Assembly (NCBI GenBank): GCA_041659005.1
Contig: JBAZZD010000004.1
Span: 1 to 52,369, forward strand
DNA from: Minisyncoccota bacterium
GTDB lineage: Bacteria; Patescibacteriota; Minisyncoccia; UBA6257; GWB1-50-10
Length of the DNA: 52,369 bases
Direction: 5' to 3'
Made by a program: the position numbers and the translations under genes. Below, piece by piece: positions 9,828-29,122 of the stretch (position 1 is its first letter; each line of letters opens with the position of its first letter). The notes beneath the pieces were generated by a model that worked only from the letters and a program-made list of their open reading frames with translations, was not told the DNA's origin and did no database searches.

Positions 9828-9856
9828 TTGCATTTTTCTAAATAGTGTGGTATAAT
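9828..9856 (+). promoter_or_regulatory. Near-consensus sigma70 promoter of the accessory locus
   Basis: TTGCAT-N17-TATAAT with TGg immediately upstream of the -10. The first ATG of the tracked ORF (9855) lies inside the -10 box, so it is unlikely to be the start. Confidence 0.65.
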
Positions 9857-9938
9857 GCAGACACCATTAAGAACGATTATTTGGGGTCTTTTGCGGGTGC
9901 AAAGGATGAGGAATAATCACAATAAAAGGAGAAACGCC

Positions 9939-10058
9939 ATGAAAAGCGTGTTCACAAAAGCGATTAACTTAATTTCTGAATTTTTTATAAATTTCAGAAA
10001 AAAAACGATGGAATTAGGAATTTCCGAAGAAGAATTTCAAACTCTTTTAGAGAGCTAG
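9939..10058 (+). CDS. Small hypothetical protein (39 aa), or the N-terminal part of a TAG-interrupted gene
   Basis: ATG preceded by AAAGGAGAAACGCC, a strong SD that is rare in this window. Ends at TAG 10056-10058. The same frame stays open to 10586. Confidence 0.35.
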   Translation: MKSVFTKAINLISEFFINFRKKTMELGISEEEFQTLLES

Positions 10059-10172
10059 GAATTTGTTTCGAAGATTGGGGACGAAGCAAGAAAGTTTTTA
10101 GGGAAATGTAAAGAATTCTTATCCGTCCTGAAGGAATCAATCTCTATTGTAACATCAGCATTCAGCAAGTCG

Positions 10173-10586
10173 TTGTTCACGACTAGTACCTCACTCAAAT
10201 ATTACATTTGGGACGACTTCCAGAAATGGATATTGGATAAGGCATCTGAAATTATTCCCGAATTCAAGAGAACATTAAAAACTTTGAAGCTCACCAAGAA
10301 TATGAATGATTCAGAAATCCTTGCAGAAATCGGAGAATCAAACGTGTTCACGATTGATGAAGTTTGTGCCATATTGAAGGCACTTACTGAACGTCAGCCT
10401 AATGGTGAAGCAGGTGATCTTCTAAACAACGGACATGCGAACATCATCTATGTTCGCCTAGACGAAAAAACTGTTGTTCCTGCGCACGTGGGTTGGCATT
10501 CTGGCGGTCGCCGGTGGGGCTTGGGTGCGGGTTCGCTTGATGGCCATTTGTGGGGTGCTGGCCGCCGTGTGCTTGTCTGGGGCTAA
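10173..10586 (+). CDS. Hypothetical protein with a Gly/Trp/Arg-rich C-terminus (possibly continuous with 9939-10058)
   Basis: 137-aa ORF from TTG. There is no stop codon between TAG 10056 and this TTG. The last ~96 nt are GC-rich and almost free of A. No recognisable domain. Confidence 0.4.
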   Translation: MFTTSTSLKYYIWDDFQKWILDKASEIIPEFKRTLKTLKLTKNMNDSEILAEIGESNVFTIDEVCAILKALTERQPNGEAGDLLNNGHANIIYVRLDEKTVVPAHVGWHSGGRRWGLGAGSLDGHLWGAGRRVLVWG

Positions 10587-10617
10587 TCATTCCTGAACAC
10601 TGAATATTGTTTTATTG

Positions 10618-11388: not shown

Positions 11389-11453
11389 CTGAAGTGCAAA
11401 ATTCAAAAGTTTATATCAATTCCAAAAAATTAGTAGATTTCAAAACAACACCC

Positions 11454-11730
11454 GTCCCGTTAGAGACAATATGTACTACTATGTTTATATATTACAAAAC
11501 AAAAAGGACAATACATTCTATACTGGGTTAACCGGAGATTTACGGAAACGTTTAAAAGAACACAATGAAAATAAATCAACACGTACGAAAGGAAGGGGGC
11601 TATTTACACTTAGCTATTATGAAACTTGTCTTAATAAAACAGACGCAAGGTCGCGTGAAATCTATCTTAAATCAGGAATGGGTAAGCGATTCATCAAGGA
11701 TCGTCTTAAACGTTTCCTGTCTCTAACGGG
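11454..11730 (+). mobile_element. Long copy of the inverted-repeat element, carrying a GIY-YIG ORF
   Basis: Perfect 13-bp arms CCCGTTAGAGACA (11456-11468) and TGTCTCTAACGGG (11718-11730). The right arm abuts the ATG at 11731. Confidence 0.7.
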
Positions 11731-11734
11731 ATGA
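11471..11734 (+). CDS. GIY-YIG (URI-domain, COG2827-like) small nuclease
   Basis: 87 aa. YYVYILQNKKDNTFYTGLTGDLRKRLKEHN gives the GIY / YxG / R...E pattern. Stop overlaps the next ATG (ATGA). Confidence 0.85.
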   Translation: MYYYVYILQNKKDNTFYTGLTGDLRKRLKEHNENKSTRTKGRGLFTLSYYETCLNKTDARSREIYLKSGMGKRFIKDRLKRFLSLTG

Positions 11735-12516
11735 AAGAGCAGGTATTTATAAAAACAGATAAATCAGGAGCGAGAAAGAAGTACTATTATGGTGCTGGAA
11801 TTATTATTGGAATCGTTGTTGTTGCTGCTGTTGGTATGTATTTTTACTATTGGAGTCCAATGCTAAGAATTGGTGAGTTTTCTATTATTGGCGCCAACTC
11901 AAAAGAGGAGGCAAAAATTGCGATTATTAATTATTTTGATTCTTCGCGGTCATTTTTTTCACCCGCAGCCGATCGGATTGTTTTTTGGATGCAGTATAAT
12001 GAGGAATTTATTCAGTCACCGCCATTTCTTCCTTATGCGTCATCAATCAAACTTACAAGTAATATCGCTGAAAAAAAAGTGACTGCAGAAATAATACCGC
12101 GAGTAATGAGTGGGGTGTGGTGTATCAGCGAGAAATGTTTTGTATTTGATGATAATGGTATTGTATTTGCCGAGGCTCCTGATGTTTCGGGATCGTTAAT
12201 TTTAAAAATTAGAGACGAGAATAACACGCCAGTATCGCTGGGGCGATCGGTATTGAGTGGAGAAGAATTTAGTTCAATAAAAAAAGCGATTCTAAGCATT
12301 CAGAAAAATAAAATTCCAATATCTGAAGTTCTTATTCAAAATATGGAATTAAAAGAATGGGCTACTGTTGCACCAAACGGATTTTCAATAAAGTTTAGCT
12401 TTAATTCAATTCCCGATGATCTTGATTCTGTATTTAAGGGAATCTTTGAGAGGACAAACATTGATAAACTTACTTATATTGATCTTCGTGTTCCCAATAG
12501 AGTTTATTTTAAATAA
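11731..12516 (+). CDS. FtsQ/DivIB-like cell division protein (single TM plus POTRA-like region)
   Basis: N-terminal TM helix, then IGEFSIIGANSKEEAKIAIINYF. The call rests on architecture only. Confidence 0.4.
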   Translation: MKEQVFIKTDKSGARKKYYYGAGIIIGIVVVAAVGMYFYYWSPMLRIGEFSIIGANSKEEAKIAIINYFDSSRSFFSPAADRIVFWMQYNEEFIQSPPFLPYASSIKLTSNIAEKKVTAEIIPRVMSGVWCISEKCFVFDDNGIVFAEAPDVSGSLILKIRDENNTPVSLGRSVLSGEEFSSIKKAILSIQKNKIPISEVLIQNMELKEWATVAPNGFSIKFSFNSIPDDLDSVFKGIFERTNIDKLTYIDLRVPNRVYFK

Positions 12517-13488: not shown

Positions 13489-13676
13489 AATCCATAGGTA
13501 TAGATGTGTGCTAGAACGTACTTTTATAAATCCACGAATGGGAAGAAATTATAAAGAATGTAATAAAGAAAGCTGTTTGAGGCGCCCTTGGCGCTGAGTT
13601 CTTTCTCTATTACATTCTTTTCTTTCCTGAGTTGGATTTATAGTATGTGAAAGTTTCATCTATACCTATGGATTCT
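13489..13676. repeat. Long (~187 nt) imperfect palindrome with a GC-rich tip
   Basis: Outer arms atccataggtatagatg (13490-13506) and catctatacctatggat(t) (13658-13675). Inner pairs tataaatcca/tggatttata and aagaatgtaataaagaaag/ctttctctattacattctt. Tip is ggcgcc-ctt-ggcgct. Confidence 0.7.
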
Positions 13677-13680
13677 GGAG

Positions 13681-13707
13681 TTAGCACTTGACACTGTCCA
13701 GTGCTAA
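13681..13707 (+). promoter_or_regulatory. CIRCE operator (HrcA binding site)
   Basis: TTAGCACTT-N9-CAGTGCTAA against the consensus TTAGCACTC-N9-GAGTGCTAA. Lies immediately upstream of hrcA. Confidence 0.85.
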
Positions 13708-13715
13708 TTTATAAT
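13688..13715 (+). promoter_or_regulatory. Consensus sigma70 promoter embedded in CIRCE
   Basis: TTGACA (13688-13693) -N16- TATAAT (13710-13715). The -10 overlaps ATG 13714. The second in-frame ATG is at 13723. Confidence 0.6.
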
Positions 13716-14400
13716 GAACTGGATGAGGGAAAGAACCCAGTCAATTTTAGATGCTTCGGTACGGGAATATATCAAAACGGGGAAACCAATTACCTCAGAG
13801 ATTTTATATGAAATCTATGATTTTGGAATTAAACCTGCGATGATTCGTTTAGAGCTTGGTGATTTATCCCATGAGGGTTTTTTATACCAAATTCACCCCT
13901 CTGGAGGACGATATCCAACTGACAAGGCATACAAACACTTTGTTGCAAATGTTATTGAAAAAGAATCTAAGACAGAGCAAAAGTGGATTGATGAAGACAA
14001 GATTGAGGATGACCTTAAGGGATTTATGGACGATCTCTCACATCATCTTGGGGTGCTTTCAATCGGATTTGATGTAGAAAAAAATATCGTCGTCGGTTCT
14101 GGGTTGTGCGAATTACTTGAACGGATTCCAACCGACGCGAAAGAAGGACTGCTTTCTATTGTGAGCGACTTTGAGGCAATTGAAGAGCGATTACAAAAAC
14201 AACGAGAGTGGATGATGAATGATAGTATGTGGCCTCGAGTCTTTATTGGAGAAAGTCCGATTACGAAGAGCAAAGAACTTTCAGTAGTAGCAGGCAAAGT
14301 AATTAATGATGAAAATGAGGTAATTATATTTTCAATTGGACCCAAACGAATGGACTATGAAAGGGCGATAGGAATTATGAAACTAATATCAAATGATTAA
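13714..14400 (+). CDS. hrcA: Heat-inducible transcription repressor HrcA (short form)
   Basis: N-terminal wHTH resembling HrcA (ITSEILYEIYDFGIKPAMIRLELGDLSHEGFLYQIHPSGGRYPTDKAYKHFV). CIRCE upstream and grpE-dnaK downstream. The true start may be ATG 13723. Confidence 0.8.
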   Translation: MNWMRERTQSILDASVREYIKTGKPITSEILYEIYDFGIKPAMIRLELGDLSHEGFLYQIHPSGGRYPTDKAYKHFVANVIEKESKTEQKWIDEDKIEDDLKGFMDDLSHHLGVLSIGFDVEKNIVVGSGLCELLERIPTDAKEGLLSIVSDFEAIEERLQKQREWMMNDSMWPRVFIGESPITKSKELSVVAGKVINDENEVIIFSIGPKRMDYERAIGIMKLISND

Positions 14401-14413
14401 GTAGAATATATGG

Positions 14414-14517
14414 ATCCCGTTAGAAGACGGGATAGTAAAAAATAATTTATTGAATATATATGAAAAAGCAAACATTTAAATTGTCGAGCAAGCAAAATAA
14501 TCAAATTTTCTAACGGG
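14414..14517 (+). repeat. Inverted-repeat element copy 3, between hrcA and grpE
   Basis: Left arm ATCCCGTTAGAA (14414-14425) and right arm TTCTAACGGG (14508-14517), abutting the grpE ATG at 14518. Confidence 0.8.
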
Positions 14518-15018
14518 ATGGAAGAAGAAAAAAAAGAAGAAAATATTGCGGAGGAGTTAGATCTTGAAGGAATCCAAAAAGAGCGGAATGAATATCTTGA
14601 AGGATGGAAACGCGCGCGAGCAGATTTTATAAATTATAAAAATGAAGAGAGTGAGCGAGCAAGGCGATTGGGTGTAATAACAAAAGAAGTAATTATTGTA
14701 GACATTCTTCCGGTTCTTGATAGCTTTAGGCTTGGAATTATGTCATCAAATGATGAGCAGTCAAAAAAAGGAATGGAACTTATCCGAATGCAATTAGAAG
14801 AAGTATTGAAACGGAATGGATTGGAGAAAATAAGCATAAGTCCAGGAGAAATATTTAATCCATTGTATCACGAGGCAATTGGGGAAAAAGAATCTGAATA
14901 TCCCGAAGGAACGATTGTAGAAGAAATTGGAATTGGATATATACTTGATGGGCGAGTAGTGCGACCAACAAAGGTAAAAATATCAAAGGAGTCGAAAACA
15001 ATAAACAATAAACAATAA
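14518..15018 (+). CDS. grpE: Nucleotide exchange factor GrpE
   Basis: 166 aa. YLEGWKRARADFINYKNE coiled-coil motif and C-terminal beta domain. Position between hrcA and dnaK. Confidence 0.9.
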   Translation: MEEEKKEENIAEELDLEGIQKERNEYLEGWKRARADFINYKNEESERARRLGVITKEVIIVDILPVLDSFRLGIMSSNDEQSKKGMELIRMQLEEVLKRNGLEKISISPGEIFNPLYHEAIGEKESEYPEGTIVEEIGIGYILDGRVVRPTKVKISKESKTINNKQ

Positions 15019-25745: not shown

Positions 25746-25834
25746 ATTCGTGGTCTCAATAACAAACTAATACATTGATAGAAATAAATATCACATAAAA
25801 ATGTCGCACCTATCCATGAACTGCTTCTAACGGG
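25746..25834 (+). repeat. Inverted-repeat element copy 4 (left arm decayed), between ftsL and ftsI
   Basis: The right arm GCTTCTAACGGG abuts the ftsI ATG at 25835. ATGTCG mini-ORF at 25801-25830. The left end keeps only ATTCGT (25746-25751), shared with copy 1. Confidence 0.6.
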
Positions 25835-27439
25835 ATGAAAATCCGATTTTATATAATTACAGGATTTTTTACTTTGTTGTTTACCCTTCTCGGCGTGAAT
25901 CTGTATCAGCTTCAAATCGAGAAGGGCAAGGATTTTACGAGTAAAATTGAAGCACAAAATGCTTCACGAGAAGAACTTAATCTCCGAAGGGGGAGTATTT
26001 TATTTTCAAACCGTTCAGGAGATGAGATTCAAGTTGCTCTTAATAAAGATTTTCCTATTGTATATGCGGTACCAAAGGAAATTGAAAATGCAAAAGAAAC
26101 TGCGCGTACAATCGCTGCATTATTTTCGCTTGATGAGGCAAAACTTGAGAAAGATTTTTCTAATAAAAAAAGTCTATTTAAGCTTTTGAAGAATAAGGCA
26201 GACAATTCAACACTTGCTTCTGTTCGTTCACTTAATATAAAAGGGATTTACACTGACACAAAACAGTATCGATATTATCCATTCAATGAACTCGCAAGTT
26301 CGCTTATTGGATTTGTCGGGGTAAATGAAGATGCAAGTGAACCAATTGGGTTATATGGAATTGAGAAAATGTATGATGAAATACTTGCGCGAGGCGATCA
26401 AGTTTCATTTACCATTGATAGAGAAATACAAGCAAAGGCAGAACAAACACTTGAAGAGCTTTTGATTGCACATAATGGAACTGCTGCAACAATTGTGGTA
26501 CAGGAACCAGTTACTGGGAAAATACTTGCACTTGCAAACAAGCCAAGTTTCAATCCGAATGAGTATGAAGATTCGTCTACACAGAATTTTATGAATACTG
26601 CGGTGCAATATGTGTATGAGCCCGGTTCGGTGTTTAAGCCATTCACTATGTCTGCAGGAATTGATTCTGGCGCGATCACTCCGGATACAACCTATGTTGA
26701 TACGGGAAGCGTGACACTAAATGGGGCAACAATTCGAAATTGGGATTTAAAGGCACACGGGAAAGTTACAATGACGAATGCAATTGAGCTTTCATTAAAT
26801 ACCGCAACAGTGTTTGCTGAACAAAAAACTGGGCATAAAACATTTCATGAATATTTAAAAAAATATGGCTTTGGTGAGTTGAGTGAAATTGATCTTCCCG
26901 ACGAGGTGCGCGGAAGCATAAAAAACTTAGAACGAAAAGAAGTGCGTGATGTTGATTATGCGACCGCAGCATATGGACAAGGGGTTTCACTTACTCCAAT
27001 TCAACTCATTGCCGCATTTTCTGCGATTGCAAACGGTGGCGTGTTGATGAAGCCATATGTACGTACAAGCGAAACGCCGTATGTAGTTCGTCGTGTAATA
27101 AAAAAGGAAACAGCAGACAAAGTTCGCATGATGATGGAATCTGCCGTTGATAAAGCAAGAATTGCGGCGATCCCAAATTATCACGTAGCGGGTAAAACAG
27201 GTACTGCATTTATTCCCGATTTTAAGCGAGGTGGATATACAGAAGATCTGATACAGACTTTTGTTGGTTTTGCGCCCGCGACCAATCCGAAGTTCGTGAT
27301 TTTAATAAAACTTGATAAACCAAATAAAGAACTTGCGGGACTTACTGTTGTTCCTGCGTTCAAAACATTTGCACAATTTATCTTGAATTATTACAATATT
27401 CCTCCTGATCGAATTGGAGAACAAATTAAATCACAATGA
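25835..27439 (+). CDS. ftsI: Penicillin-binding protein (FtsI/PBP3-type transpeptidase)
   Basis: N-terminal TM helix. SxxK (GSVFKP), SxN (SLN) and KTG (KTGTA). dcw context. Confidence 0.85.
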   Translation: MKIRFYIITGFFTLLFTLLGVNLYQLQIEKGKDFTSKIEAQNASREELNLRRGSILFSNRSGDEIQVALNKDFPIVYAVPKEIENAKETARTIAALFSLDEAKLEKDFSNKKSLFKLLKNKADNSTLASVRSLNIKGIYTDTKQYRYYPFNELASSLIGFVGVNEDASEPIGLYGIEKMYDEILARGDQVSFTIDREIQAKAEQTLEELLIAHNGTAATIVVQEPVTGKILALANKPSFNPNEYEDSSTQNFMNTAVQYVYEPGSVFKPFTMSAGIDSGAITPDTTYVDTGSVTLNGATIRNWDLKAHGKVTMTNAIELSLNTATVFAEQKTGHKTFHEYLKKYGFGELSEIDLPDEVRGSIKNLERKEVRDVDYATAAYGQGVSLTPIQLIAAFSAIANGGVLMKPYVRTSETPYVVRRVIKKETADKVRMMMESAVDKARIAAIPNYHVAGKTGTAFIPDFKRGGYTEDLIQTFVGFAPATNPKFVILIKLDKPNKELAGLTVVPAFKTFAQFILNYYNIPPDRIGEQIKSQ

Positions 27440-27544
27440 ATCCCGTTAGAAAACGAACAAATATTAGTGGGTTTCCTATAGTGTTTTTATTTAATTTATT
27501 ACTATCTATGTCGAAAAAACAAAATTGTCATATCTTCTAACGGG
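27440..27544 (+). repeat. Inverted-repeat element copy 5, between ftsI and murF
   Basis: ATCCCGTTAGAA (27440-27451) and TTCTAACGGG (27535-27544), abutting the murF ATG at 27545. Confidence 0.8.
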
Positions 27545-28858
27545 ATGAAAAAATTTATGATTTCCATACTTCAGGGCATTTTGAAATATATTGCACGGGC
27601 AATAATTGCCAAATATAATCCAATGATTATTGGAATTACAGGGAGTGTTGGGAAGACATCCGCAAAAGAAGCGGTGCGCAATGTTATTGCGCGCGAGCGA
27701 ATAGTACGTGCGCCGTCAAAGAATTTTAATAACGAGCTTGGACTTCCACTTGCAATTATTGGTGATTTCGAATCAATTGGCGGGATTTTGTTCTGGATTT
27801 TTGTATTATGCAAAGGTGTTTATATCATCATTATTAGAAATAAATCCTATCCAGAGGTTTTGATACTTGAATATGGTGTTGATCGTCCTGGAGATATGAA
27901 AAAATTACTTGATATCGCTCGTCCTCATGTTGGAATTTTTTCTGCTATGGGAAAAGTACCGGTACACATTGAATATTTTACTGGTCCAGATCAGGTAGCA
28001 AAAGAAAAAACAAAGTTGATCGCACAACTTCCTGCTACTGGATTTGCGATTTTAAATGCAGACGATCCATTGGTGATGCGCGCAAAAAATGATACTCGTG
28101 CACAGATACTAACGTTTGGGATGAGCGAACATGCTGATGTGAGAATTAGTAATTTCTCAAATCACTTTGATGGTCACAATACTGAAATTTCAATGAAACT
28201 TACGTACGGTGGAAGCTTTGTTCCTGTTCGTATTAATGGGGCACTTGGGGAATCACAAGCATTTACCTCCGCAATTGCGTGTGCAGTTGGATTGGTATTT
28301 GGAATGAATCTTGTCTCAATCGCTGAATTGCTTTCAAAATATGAAGCGCCAGCAGGACGATTACGATGTATACAAGGAATTCGTGAATCAATGATTATTG
28401 ATGACACATACAACGCATCGCCAAAGGCGATGGAGAATGCGGTTGATACACTTGCGTCACTTCCAGCACGAAGACATATCGCAGTGCTCGGTGATATGTT
28501 AGAGCTTGGGAAATATACTCTCGAGGCACACGAAGAAATTGGGAAAATGATAAAAAAGAAAGGAATTGATATATTAATAACTCTTGGACTTCGAGGAAAA
28601 TTGATTGCGGAAGCAGCGCAAAATGCTGGAATGTCATCAAAATCAATATTTATTGCGGACACTATTGATGAGGTTGTTCATTTTCTCGAGACAAAAATTC
28701 AGAAAAGTGACTTGTTATTAGTAAAAGGATCACAAGGTGTTCGAATGGAGAGAATTGTAAAACGAATTATGGCAGAGCCTGAACATGCATACGATCGTAT
28801 CGCTCGCCAAAATTCAGAATGGATTGTAAAGAAGGGAATGTATGATGAGGGGGAGTAG
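27545..28858 (+). CDS. murF: UDP-MurNAc-tripeptide--D-Ala-D-Ala ligase MurF
   Basis: Mur ligase P-loop GITGSVGKTS. Central and C-terminal Mur ligase domains (DDTYNASP, LVKGSQGVRME). Confidence 0.9.
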   Translation: MKKFMISILQGILKYIARAIIAKYNPMIIGITGSVGKTSAKEAVRNVIARERIVRAPSKNFNNELGLPLAIIGDFESIGGILFWIFVLCKGVYIIIIRNKSYPEVLILEYGVDRPGDMKKLLDIARPHVGIFSAMGKVPVHIEYFTGPDQVAKEKTKLIAQLPATGFAILNADDPLVMRAKNDTRAQILTFGMSEHADVRISNFSNHFDGHNTEISMKLTYGGSFVPVRINGALGESQAFTSAIACAVGLVFGMNLVSIAELLSKYEAPAGRLRCIQGIRESMIIDDTYNASPKAMENAVDTLASLPARRHIAVLGDMLELGKYTLEAHEEIGKMIKKKGIDILITLGLRGKLIAEAAQNAGMSSKSIFIADTIDEVVHFLETKIQKSDLLLVKGSQGVRMERIVKRIMAEPEHAYDRIARQNSEWIVKKGMYDEGE

Positions 28859-28860
28859 GT

Positions 28861-28947
28861 AATACGCTCATCTCATATATTCTTTCGAACTGTCTCCGGG
28901 GCGACGCCCAAGTCTTAGTCCTCAAGAATATATGAGATAAGCGTATT
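28861..28947. repeat. Long hairpin (24-bp stem) at the end of the dcw operon, probably a terminator
   Basis: Arms aatacgctcatctcatatattctt (28861-28884) and aagaatatatgagataagcgtatt (28924-28947), one mismatch. GC-rich loop with ggggcgacgccc. Followed by TTTTG. Confidence 0.7.
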
Positions 28948-29044: not shown

Positions 29045-29116
29045 GGTCCCATCGTCTAACGGTTAGGACATTGCCCTCTCACGGCGAAAATAGGAGTTCG
29101 ATTCTCCTTGGGACTA
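29045..29116 (+). tRNA. tRNA-Glu (anticodon CTC)
   Basis: Hand-folded. Acceptor ggtccca/tgggact (G1-U72), D-arm tcgtctaacggttaggac, anticodon stem ttgcc/ggcga with loop ctCTCac, T-arm aggag-ttcgatt-ctcct. Confidence 0.85.
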
Positions 29117-29122
29117 CAAGAA

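Follow-up and report, generated by a model that had tools for sequence, protein, structure and literature searches.

A candidate very small mobile element, built from a GIY-YIG nuclease gene between inverted repeats, at start codons in a patescibacterial genome

A nuclease gene enclosed by inverted repeats

The stretch of DNA analysed here, which we call the window, comprises positions 1 to 52,369 of contig JBAZZD010000004.1 from a Minisyncoccota bacterium (assembly GCA_041659005.1). At positions 11455-11731 it holds a unit of 277 bp in which short inverted repeats, the arms, enclose one small gene for a GIY-YIG nuclease, and the unit ends on the start codon of the next gene, referred to below as the host gene. 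We regard it as likely that this unit is a full-length copy of a very small mobile element, similar to an insertion sequence (IS), that is widespread in Patescibacteria and consists of inverted repeats around a single nuclease gene of 85-95 amino acids (aa). The features of the locus are as follows; L082 is a contig of 746 kb that shares about 84% identity with the window, and L083 is a second relative, about 80% identical.

11455-11731, + strand: full-length element of 277 bp, counting the terminal T...A pair; GIY-YIG gene with inverted-repeat ends
11453-11468, + strand: left terminal inverted repeat, (CGT)CCCGTTAGAGACA, non-coding in this copy; pairs with 11718-11733 in the fold of single-stranded DNA (ssDNA)
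11471-11734, + strand: open reading frame (ORF) for a stand-alone GIY-YIG nuclease, 87 aa; Pfam PF01541
11718-11733, + strand: right terminal inverted repeat, TGTCTCTAACGGG(ATG); encodes the ..LSLTG C-terminus and overlaps the host ATG
11731-12516, + strand: host gene with the abutted start codon; 261-aa protein without a Pfam family; orthologs in L082 and L083
11429-11454, + strand: about 26 nt to the left of the element's terminal T (11455), missing from the empty site of L082 in the alignment with that contig

The initial annotation of this DNA had described perfect 13-bp arms around the ORF, and so they are: CCCGTTAGAGACA lies exactly at 11456-11468 on the forward strand, with its reverse complement at 11718-11730. 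The paired stem is longer than had been noted, running from 11453-11468 against 11718-11733 (CGT...ATG, with a G.T pair); in other words, the host ATG is itself part of the stem. When the element is folded as ssDNA, the arms are predicted to close the structure. The stop codon of the nuclease ORF (TGA, 11732-11734) overlaps the ATG of the next ORF (11731), as had been stated, and is taken from the host sequence ATGAA. The name given to that next gene fared less well, for Pfam returns no FtsQ/POTRA match for the 'ftsQ-like' 261-aa protein even at E<=1. A Pro-Val-Arg reading of the left arm had also been proposed; CCC GTT AGA does lie in the frame of the ORF (11471-11456 = 15), but this reading is meaningless, as the left arm falls in three frames across the family.

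The assignment of the ORF to the GIY-YIG nucleases is secure (Pfam PF01541, E 6.6e-15, 55.6 bits against a cut-off of 22.6), with the domain covering residues 2-68 of 87 and no second domain present. The AlphaFold model (pLDDT 89) has the GIY-YIG alpha/beta fold in the order beta-beta-alpha-beta-alpha-alpha. Among Foldseek matches, ranks 1-8 are taken by the UPF0213 protein BH0048 (1zg2) and Slx1, followed by the catalytic domain of I-TevI; 1zg2 is also the best sequence match in the PDB (E 7.6e-11). With the group I intron endonuclease model TIGR01453 the protein reaches 29.1 bits, where the cut-off is 56. Searching the window by tblastn with the ORF as query gives no second GIY-YIG copy.

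Conserved arms, target duplications and empty sites

Close relatives of the ORF in the protein collection number about 200, are 62-79% identical to it and are mostly 85-100 aa long (range 85-129 aa); those that carry names are labelled Patescibacteria/Paceibacterota. A species scan, limited to one genome per species, yielded at least 566 loci encoding proteins 60-79% identical to that of the window, most of them in Patescibacteria and others in Omnitrophota, Planctomycetota, Thermodesulfobacteriota and further phyla, with identities across phyla of 60-71% and one copy on a 2.2-Mb deltaproteobacterial contig. The tie between arms and nuclease gene holds throughout, with CCCGTTAGAG...CTCTAACGGG around the gene in 80 of the 80 loci examined (a script detected the arms in 78, and 5 loci were inspected by eye, one of these degenerate). 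The terminal inverted repeats measure 14-15 bp, (T)CCCGTTAGAGAC...GTCTCTAACGGG(A), and the window element belongs to the length class of most full copies elsewhere (272-283 bp; 78 full copies). Additionally, 39 copies without the gene, ending in the same way, are found in 1.2 Mb of related loci.

Are these arms conserved as protein or as nucleic acid? Depending on the copy, the left arm translates as NPVRD, IPLET or SR*, which covers all three frames and means that it is not conserved as protein. The 15-bp stem is paired in 96% of cells across 73 distinct copies, with changes on both sides in 6 of the 15 pairs (57 cells); none of 500 shuffles reaches any of five measures of covariation, and slid registers fall to 32-44% paired. 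Stem position 11, for example, has 33 copies with U:A, 26 with C:G and 11 with A:U, and the base on its right-hand side falls on the third, synonymous position of a Leu codon. Judged by these sequence comparisons, the arms are DNA signals whose complementarity is maintained by compensatory changes, one of them at a codon position that is synonymous. At stem position -2 there are 12 cells with G:U and 5 unpaired ones, of which 2 are A:C; we considered this preference for G:U over A:C as evidence of an RNA stem and rejected it, because the bias is limited to a single position whose bases are set by the ATG and the target word. Among 32 aligned homologs the C-terminus RFLSLT is invariant (columns invariant among the 32 are present in the window ORF by construction). 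About half of the family's database proteins (P0002, P0012, P0013 and others) are annotated with an N-terminal extension M-N-P-V-R-D/E, which is spurious because it arises when the duplicated host ATG and the left arm (ATG AAT CCC GTT AGA GAC) are called as coding.

To define insertion sites we took the element ends as N-CCCG...CGGG-N', with a terminal pair of T..A in 75 copies and C..G in 31. Direct repeats of 4 bp flank 58 of the 75 T..A copies (permuted mean 41, maximum 47) and 14 of the 31 C..G copies (permuted mean 3.4, maximum 8). The duplicated word of the T..A class is mostly TGAA, and when the host gene starts with ATGAG or ATGGA, TGAG or TGGA stands on the left too; all four copies with TGAG as the right flank have TGAG on the left. 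Words of the C..G class are diverse (TTTA, TATG, CTCA, TCCA, TTCA, TTGA). The target reconstructed for the T..A class is A/TGAA, that is, the host start codon plus two bases, with no further conservation around it.

Empty sites are available in a close relative. Before the gene for the 261-aa protein, L082 reads ..CAATTCCAAATAAC/ATGAAAG and has no element; before grpE it reads ..AAATAT/ATGGAAG where the window reads ..ATATGGA[TCCCG...CGGGA]TGGAAG, so that the TGGA duplication is exact. L083 has decayed relics at both of these sites, and one of them reads CGTTTCCTGTCTCTA, the last codons of the nuclease, which indicates that a full copy eroded there. L082 is empty though closer to the window than the occupied L083, a pattern that would imply either precise loss or repeated gain.

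The element also occupies many unrelated loci. The 68 downstream ORFs fall into 56 families, for which Pfam names ten functions (MreC, GrpE, PBP, Mur ligase, LigT, PEBP, RNase H, NTP transferase, beta-CASP and PilM). Paralogs within one metagenome-assembled genome (MAG), L042/L078, are 94.9% identical and have unrelated flanks, as does a second paralog pair, L012/L045, at 88.8%. The homolog nearest to the window protein (79%) precedes a gene with a Germane domain, with an ATGA overlap, which is a different gene from that in the window; a short copy lies 1.8 kb beyond it, before an FKBP gene. No relative was found in the viral contigs of IMG/VR, and plasmids hold only distant GIY-YIG genes (<=43% identity). 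The initial annotation had called the unit a selfish mobile element with inverted-repeat ends. Duplications, empty orthologous sites, the many host genes, near-identical paralogs and the arms at 80 of 80 loci argue for this, and on such comparative grounds mobility is well supported; that the nuclease drives this mobility, making the element autonomous, is something we infer.

Several arrangements were encountered in passing. Tandem arrays with a common ATGAAT or GTTTAC spacer exist; in L011 (5262-5661) and L015 (7-406) one such spacer, ATGAAT, is shared by a full element and the short element of 118 bp in tandem with it. These two loci are identical yet labelled Woesearchaeota and Saccharibacteria, which points to mis-binning of MAGs. 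A second gene-less class consists of simple hairpins of 43-69 bp with CCCGTTAGA/TCTAACGGG ends and C..G termini (L007, L009, L013, L028, L032, L048, L057, L070, L076); their flanking 4-bp repeats are often TTTA, and they lie off start codons in both Omnitrophota-type and Patescibacteria loci.

Start codons and short copies

That the element is locked onto a start codon, as first noticed for the full copy, is real and family-wide in Patescibacteria, where the arms abut the ATG and the target is A/TGAA. The window has ATGRA sites at 16 annotated gene starts, about 35 other intergenic positions and 377 intragenic ones, and all five elements are at gene starts. Every one of the 58 full T..A copies is oriented as its host gene. 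The C..G copies, mostly from other phyla, are not at start codons. The right duplicate preserves the host ATG and provides the stop of the nuclease ORF (GGG-A-TGA), and the left duplicate sometimes serves the upstream gene as its stop. Going by the sequence, the right arm TCTAACGGGATGA contains TAA in one frame, TGA in the second and N-G-M leading into the host protein in the third, so that translation coming from upstream stops at, or runs on into, the host gene.

Upstream of 32 genes in the window there are almost no motifs resembling Shine-Dalgarno sites and the leaders are A/T-rich; translation initiation in this organism is probably independent of such sites. Two candidate explanations of the placement were set aside. 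ATGA stop/start overlaps as the target hold for only about 11 of 55 copies. Hijacking of a host Shine-Dalgarno site by the duplicated left ATG was rejected for an organism essentially without such motifs, in a family where the left ATG is in the nuclease frame in 23 of 49 copies.

Besides the full copy, the window holds shorter relatives. The 10-mer CCCGTTAGAG occurs nine times with at most one mismatch, against 0.96 expected, and none of 100 shuffles reaches nine. Four short copies had been counted initially; three are complete (arms spanning 2838-2934, 14416-14517 and 27442-27544), and the fourth is a lone right arm at 25826-25834.

2837-2935, + strand: short copy without coding sequence, located between mreB and mreC; its left flank, TTCGT, is paired with ATGAA; duplication absent
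14411-14522, + strand: short copy before grpE; 4-bp duplication TGGA (14411-14414 and 14519-14522)
25798-25835, + strand: right-end relic (ATGTCGC...CTTCTAACGGG/A) at the ATG of the PBP/FtsI-like gene; left arm lost
27437-27549, + strand: short copy between the PBP/FtsI-like gene and the Mur ligase gene; duplication TGAA (27437-27440 and 27546-27549)

All five right arms in the window run straight into the ATG(A/G)A of a gene on the + strand, these genes being mreC, the gene for the 261-aa protein without a Pfam family, grpE, the PBP/FtsI-like transpeptidase gene and the Mur ligase gene; in the copy at 27437, the left TGA (27437-27439) is the stop of the upstream gene. Folded as RNA, the short copies form stems closed by the arms and are more stable than shuffles (z -4.07 for the copy at 2838, -2.7 and -3.1 for the others), whereas the relic at 25798-25835 gives no stem (z -0.76). 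Rfam at gathering thresholds and ARAGORN find nothing at the elements and only two tRNAs elsewhere in the window.

How are the short copies related to the full one? They had been said to share only the arms, which is right in that their interiors cannot be aligned to the full copy and incomplete in that a TGTCGA motif is also common to them. A hidden Markov model (HMM) of full-length elements, run with nhmmer against 14 short-copy interiors, gave 0 hits, and the interiors do not match one another either. What they have in common is a layout with CTATGA close to the left arm, the motif GTCG, and a GC-rich hairpin that abuts the right arm and is preceded by CACGG. The copy at 2838, at the mreC site, is also present in L082, where its arms are gathering mismatches; it is thus occupied and decaying there, and older than the split from this 84%-identical relative. 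The window full copy as parent of the short ones therefore stands only as membership of the same element family: the short arms have AGAA/TTCT, an A:T pair where the full copy (AGAG) has G:C, the interiors are dissimilar by nhmmer, and the copy at 2838 predates the split. Origin by internal deletion, in the manner of miniature inverted-repeat transposable elements (MITEs), has direct evidence at one orthologous site, in L083, with dissimilar interiors elsewhere. A mini-ORF, MEYVYTLYFKNVEKFLASFLTG, in the copy at 2838 was considered as a deleted nuclease gene and is unsupported, the full-element HMM finding nothing in the 14 interiors.

Other features of the window deserve mention in their own right. 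A nested palindrome of about 186 nt (13489-13674; perfect outer arms of 18 bp, an inner pair of 20 nt and a GC-rich centre) occupies a 360-nt spacer before hrcA; since this spacer cannot be aligned to L082, the palindrome may represent a structured RNA or a further inserted element. The hrcA-like gene (13714-14400), which is followed by grpE, is directly preceded by a CIRCE-like operator, TTAGCACTTGACACTGTCCAGTGCTAA (13682-13708). An imperfect inverted repeat of 31 nt (28861-28947; 87% complementary, 25-nt loop) is located between the Mur ligase gene and tRNA-Glu (29045-29117). Finally, about 775 nt at 9838-10613, including an ORF at 10173-10586 (137 aa), are without counterpart in L082 and may be another insertion.

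Known relatives, alternative explanations and significance

The nearest precedent comes from Neisseria. Ssn proteins are 94-aa single-domain GIY-YIG nucleases that cut only ssDNA, beside NTS hairpins (Chenal et al. 2025, PMC11893778). Their genes are flanked by NTS repeats, which are dispersed in hundreds of copies and are mostly intergenic; the authors call the 'NTS-ssnA-NTS' layout identical to that of an IS, and cleavage persists when the hairpin is split between two oligonucleotides (PMC11893778). Like Ssn, the window protein is small and single-domain (87 aa versus about 90-100), without an extra DNA-binding domain, and its gene is tied to a dispersed hairpin-forming repeat of its own (arms at 80 of 80 loci; 39 gene-less copies in 1.2 Mb); the arrangement of CACGG and GC-rich hairpin in the short copies also recalls the NTS layout. 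Membership of the Ssn family has been defined by blastp to Nm SsnA at E<1e-10 with 75% query cover, or by cd10448 as the top CDD hit (PMC11893778). Measured against the N. gonorrhoeae ortholog, the window protein falls outside the blastp definition, with 34% identity over 64 of 94 residues (68% cover) and E 4e-9 in a single pairwise comparison, at an hhalign probability of 96%; it is as close to B. subtilis YazA (UPF0213) as to Ssn. The published SRM pattern, HGTCWY N0-2 YYVSBRH N0-5 WNVSBRG N0-2 RNCYNB (PMC11893778), matches 9 times in the gonococcal ssnA locus and nowhere in the window, and related loci totalling 1.2 Mb contain 5 matches. Here the gene splits one palindrome, whereas in N. 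gonorrhoeae complete NTS hairpins flank ssnA (9 in a 2.6-kb locus). By these sequence measures, the window family is a clade separate from Ssn. The gonococcal sequence was taken from L086 (NZ_CP119140.1), a whole N. gonorrhoeae chromosome (2.17 Mb) that is filed as a plasmid in PLSDB and in which the ssnA ortholog is unannotated.

The initial annotation had also supposed that such a configuration was undescribed. The literature gave us no account of the arm sequences, of GIY-YIG proteins with MITEs, REP, target-site duplications or start codons, or of such elements in Patescibacteria; the Ssn/NTS system (PMC11893778), itself IS-like, is a precedent all the same. The text of that paper contains no duplications, empty sites, start-codon insertion or stop-codon capture, and the terms 'Patescibacteria' and 'start codon' are absent from it. 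The finding is real, the element being a member of a widespread family for which we found no description and a variant of the recently described nuclease-plus-hairpin kind, with clear marks of transposition and an uncommon attachment to start codons.

Other systems share parts of the design. REP/RAYT systems (REPtrons) and IS200/IS605 likewise have a small nuclease gene between palindromic repeats, many gene-less intergenic palindromes and ssDNA hairpins as the likely substrate. Their enzymes are HUH/Y1 transposases with covalent intermediates, and IS200/IS605 is not known to give a target duplication; the present family, in contrast, has a GIY-YIG enzyme, ends that pair across the whole element and a 4-bp duplication. 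With autonomous IS and their MITEs it shares terminal inverted repeats, short target duplications and empty sites, several unrelated loci per genome, and short non-coding copies with only the ends in common. It differs from them in that the coding copy is just about 277 bp, that the sole ORF is the GIY-YIG nuclease instead of a recognised transposase (DDE, HUH, serine or tyrosine), and that insertions are confined to start codons in a fixed orientation. The best matches in sequence and fold are UPF0213 (B. halodurans BH0048 = 1zg2, B. subtilis YazA, E. coli YhbQ) and the Slx1 domain. UPF0213 differs in the C-terminal half and, in the one gene looked at, in context: yazA sits amid housekeeping genes (trmNF-yazA-rsmI), whereas the window gene is present or absent between close relatives and found at many loci.

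How might such an element move? In the mechanism that we propose, the arms would pair with each other in ssDNA, as in the predicted fold, and the nuclease would recognise the arm stem and cut at its base, by analogy with Ssn at NTS hairpins. Cutting at the stem base would drive excision or copying of full and short copies alike, and host repair would finish integration and create the 4-bp duplication. The element would sit on essential genes (mreC, grpE, ftsI, the Mur ligase gene) with little harm because frames entering the right arm stop at the host ATG or read into the host protein, and the absence of host Shine-Dalgarno motifs may be the reason why insertions are tolerated.

A number of observations weigh against a nuclease-driven mobile element and should be stated together. 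GIY-YIG enzymes are hydrolytic nucleases, and we know of no DNA transposase of this fold, so integration would need further partners; moreover, the link from nuclease to arms is drawn by analogy with Ssn. The length of the duplication varies from 3 to 5 bp, and the terminal-pair class (T..A or C..G) has no association with protein similarity. The full copy in the window has no TGAA duplication on its left, where about 26 extra unexplained bases stand instead, and 8 copies are exceptions of this kind. Restriction to start codons could result from selection instead of targeting, and some of the cross-phylum assignments may be products of MAG mis-binning. Additionally, the short copies in the window are old and mutually dissimilar, and that at 2838 is decaying in L082, so current activity in this genome is at most a possibility.

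What else could explain the locus? The best of the rival explanations, which we hold to be unlikely, is a domesticated Ssn-like system in which nuclease and palindromes work to the benefit of the host, one example being that incoming or replicating ssDNA is cut at the hairpins to control transformation or recombination, the copies being fixed recognition sites that have ceased to move. Patescibacteria are thought to be dependent on DNA uptake, which counts for such a role, as do a protein that is strongly conserved (65-79% identity) and window short copies that are old instead of recent duplicates. The homology and layout in common with Ssn point the same way, control of transformation or recombination having been proposed for Neisseria SsnA/NTS (PMC11893778). 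Fixed sites are difficult to reconcile with 4-bp duplications, with filled/empty polymorphism between genomes about 84% identical, with 95%-identical paralogs at unrelated loci and with arms that decay in L082 at an orthologous site. An element could be domesticated and mobile at once.

A free-standing homing endonuclease like those of phage T4 (Seg/Mob) would cut one cognate empty allele and be copied by double-strand-break repair, with the repeats incidental. We think this quite improbable. The GIY-YIG catalytic fold, with its match to the catalytic domain of I-TevI, and the intergenic position amid conserved genes are indeed as in T4 SegA-G and I-TevI, but the 87-aa protein has no DNA-binding domain, and its weak TIGR01453 match (29 bits) is far under the cut-off. 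Instead of one cognate site, 56 host gene families are abutted; target duplications are present, the termini are conserved and covarying, gene-less copies have the same ends, and no copies were found in viral contigs. Hardly credible, lastly, is a host RNA element whose arms form an mRNA stem (terminator, RNase III site or translational control) with the GIY-YIG gene as an ordinary housekeeping gene in the loop: the host AUG does contribute its first bases to the stem, folding of the short copies as RNA is better than that of shuffles (z -2.7 to -4.1), G:U outnumbers unpaired cells (12 vs 5) at position -2 and copies lie inside operons, but no Rfam family matches, the sites are dispensable (empty in L082), duplications are present and the loci are many and unrelated, the G:U bias concerns just the one position fixed by the ATG and target word and so is not evidence for RNA, and C..G-class copies in other phyla are off start codons.

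Returning to the mobile element, it may be among the smallest self-contained transposon-like elements known. A bolder version, which we offer as a possibility and hold with less than even confidence, is that it represents a new class of prokaryotic DNA transposon: its sole protein would be an 85-95-aa GIY-YIG nuclease, its length of about 277 bp would make it the smallest autonomous mobile element known, its intermediate would be ssDNA with paired ends, and it would insert at start codons (A/TGAA), borrow its stop codon from the target, hand translation over to the host gene and so colonise the essential genes of streamlined Patescibacteria. If the nuclease mobilises the element, GIY-YIG would join the DDE, HUH, serine and tyrosine enzymes as a basis of DNA transposition, in a unit far below any known IS size. 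It would also provide the evidence of movement that the 2025 Ssn study left open, and suggest how hairpin repeats might multiply in genomes.

There are practical consequences as well. The invariant arms are a simple annotation marker for these elements and explain the 'MNPVRD' extensions, and a nuclease acting on a stem that two distant half-sites form together could find use as a reagent that cuts ssDNA. For the organisms themselves, the start-codon geometry would be a compact way for a parasite to live on the essential genes of very small genomes that lack Shine-Dalgarno sites.

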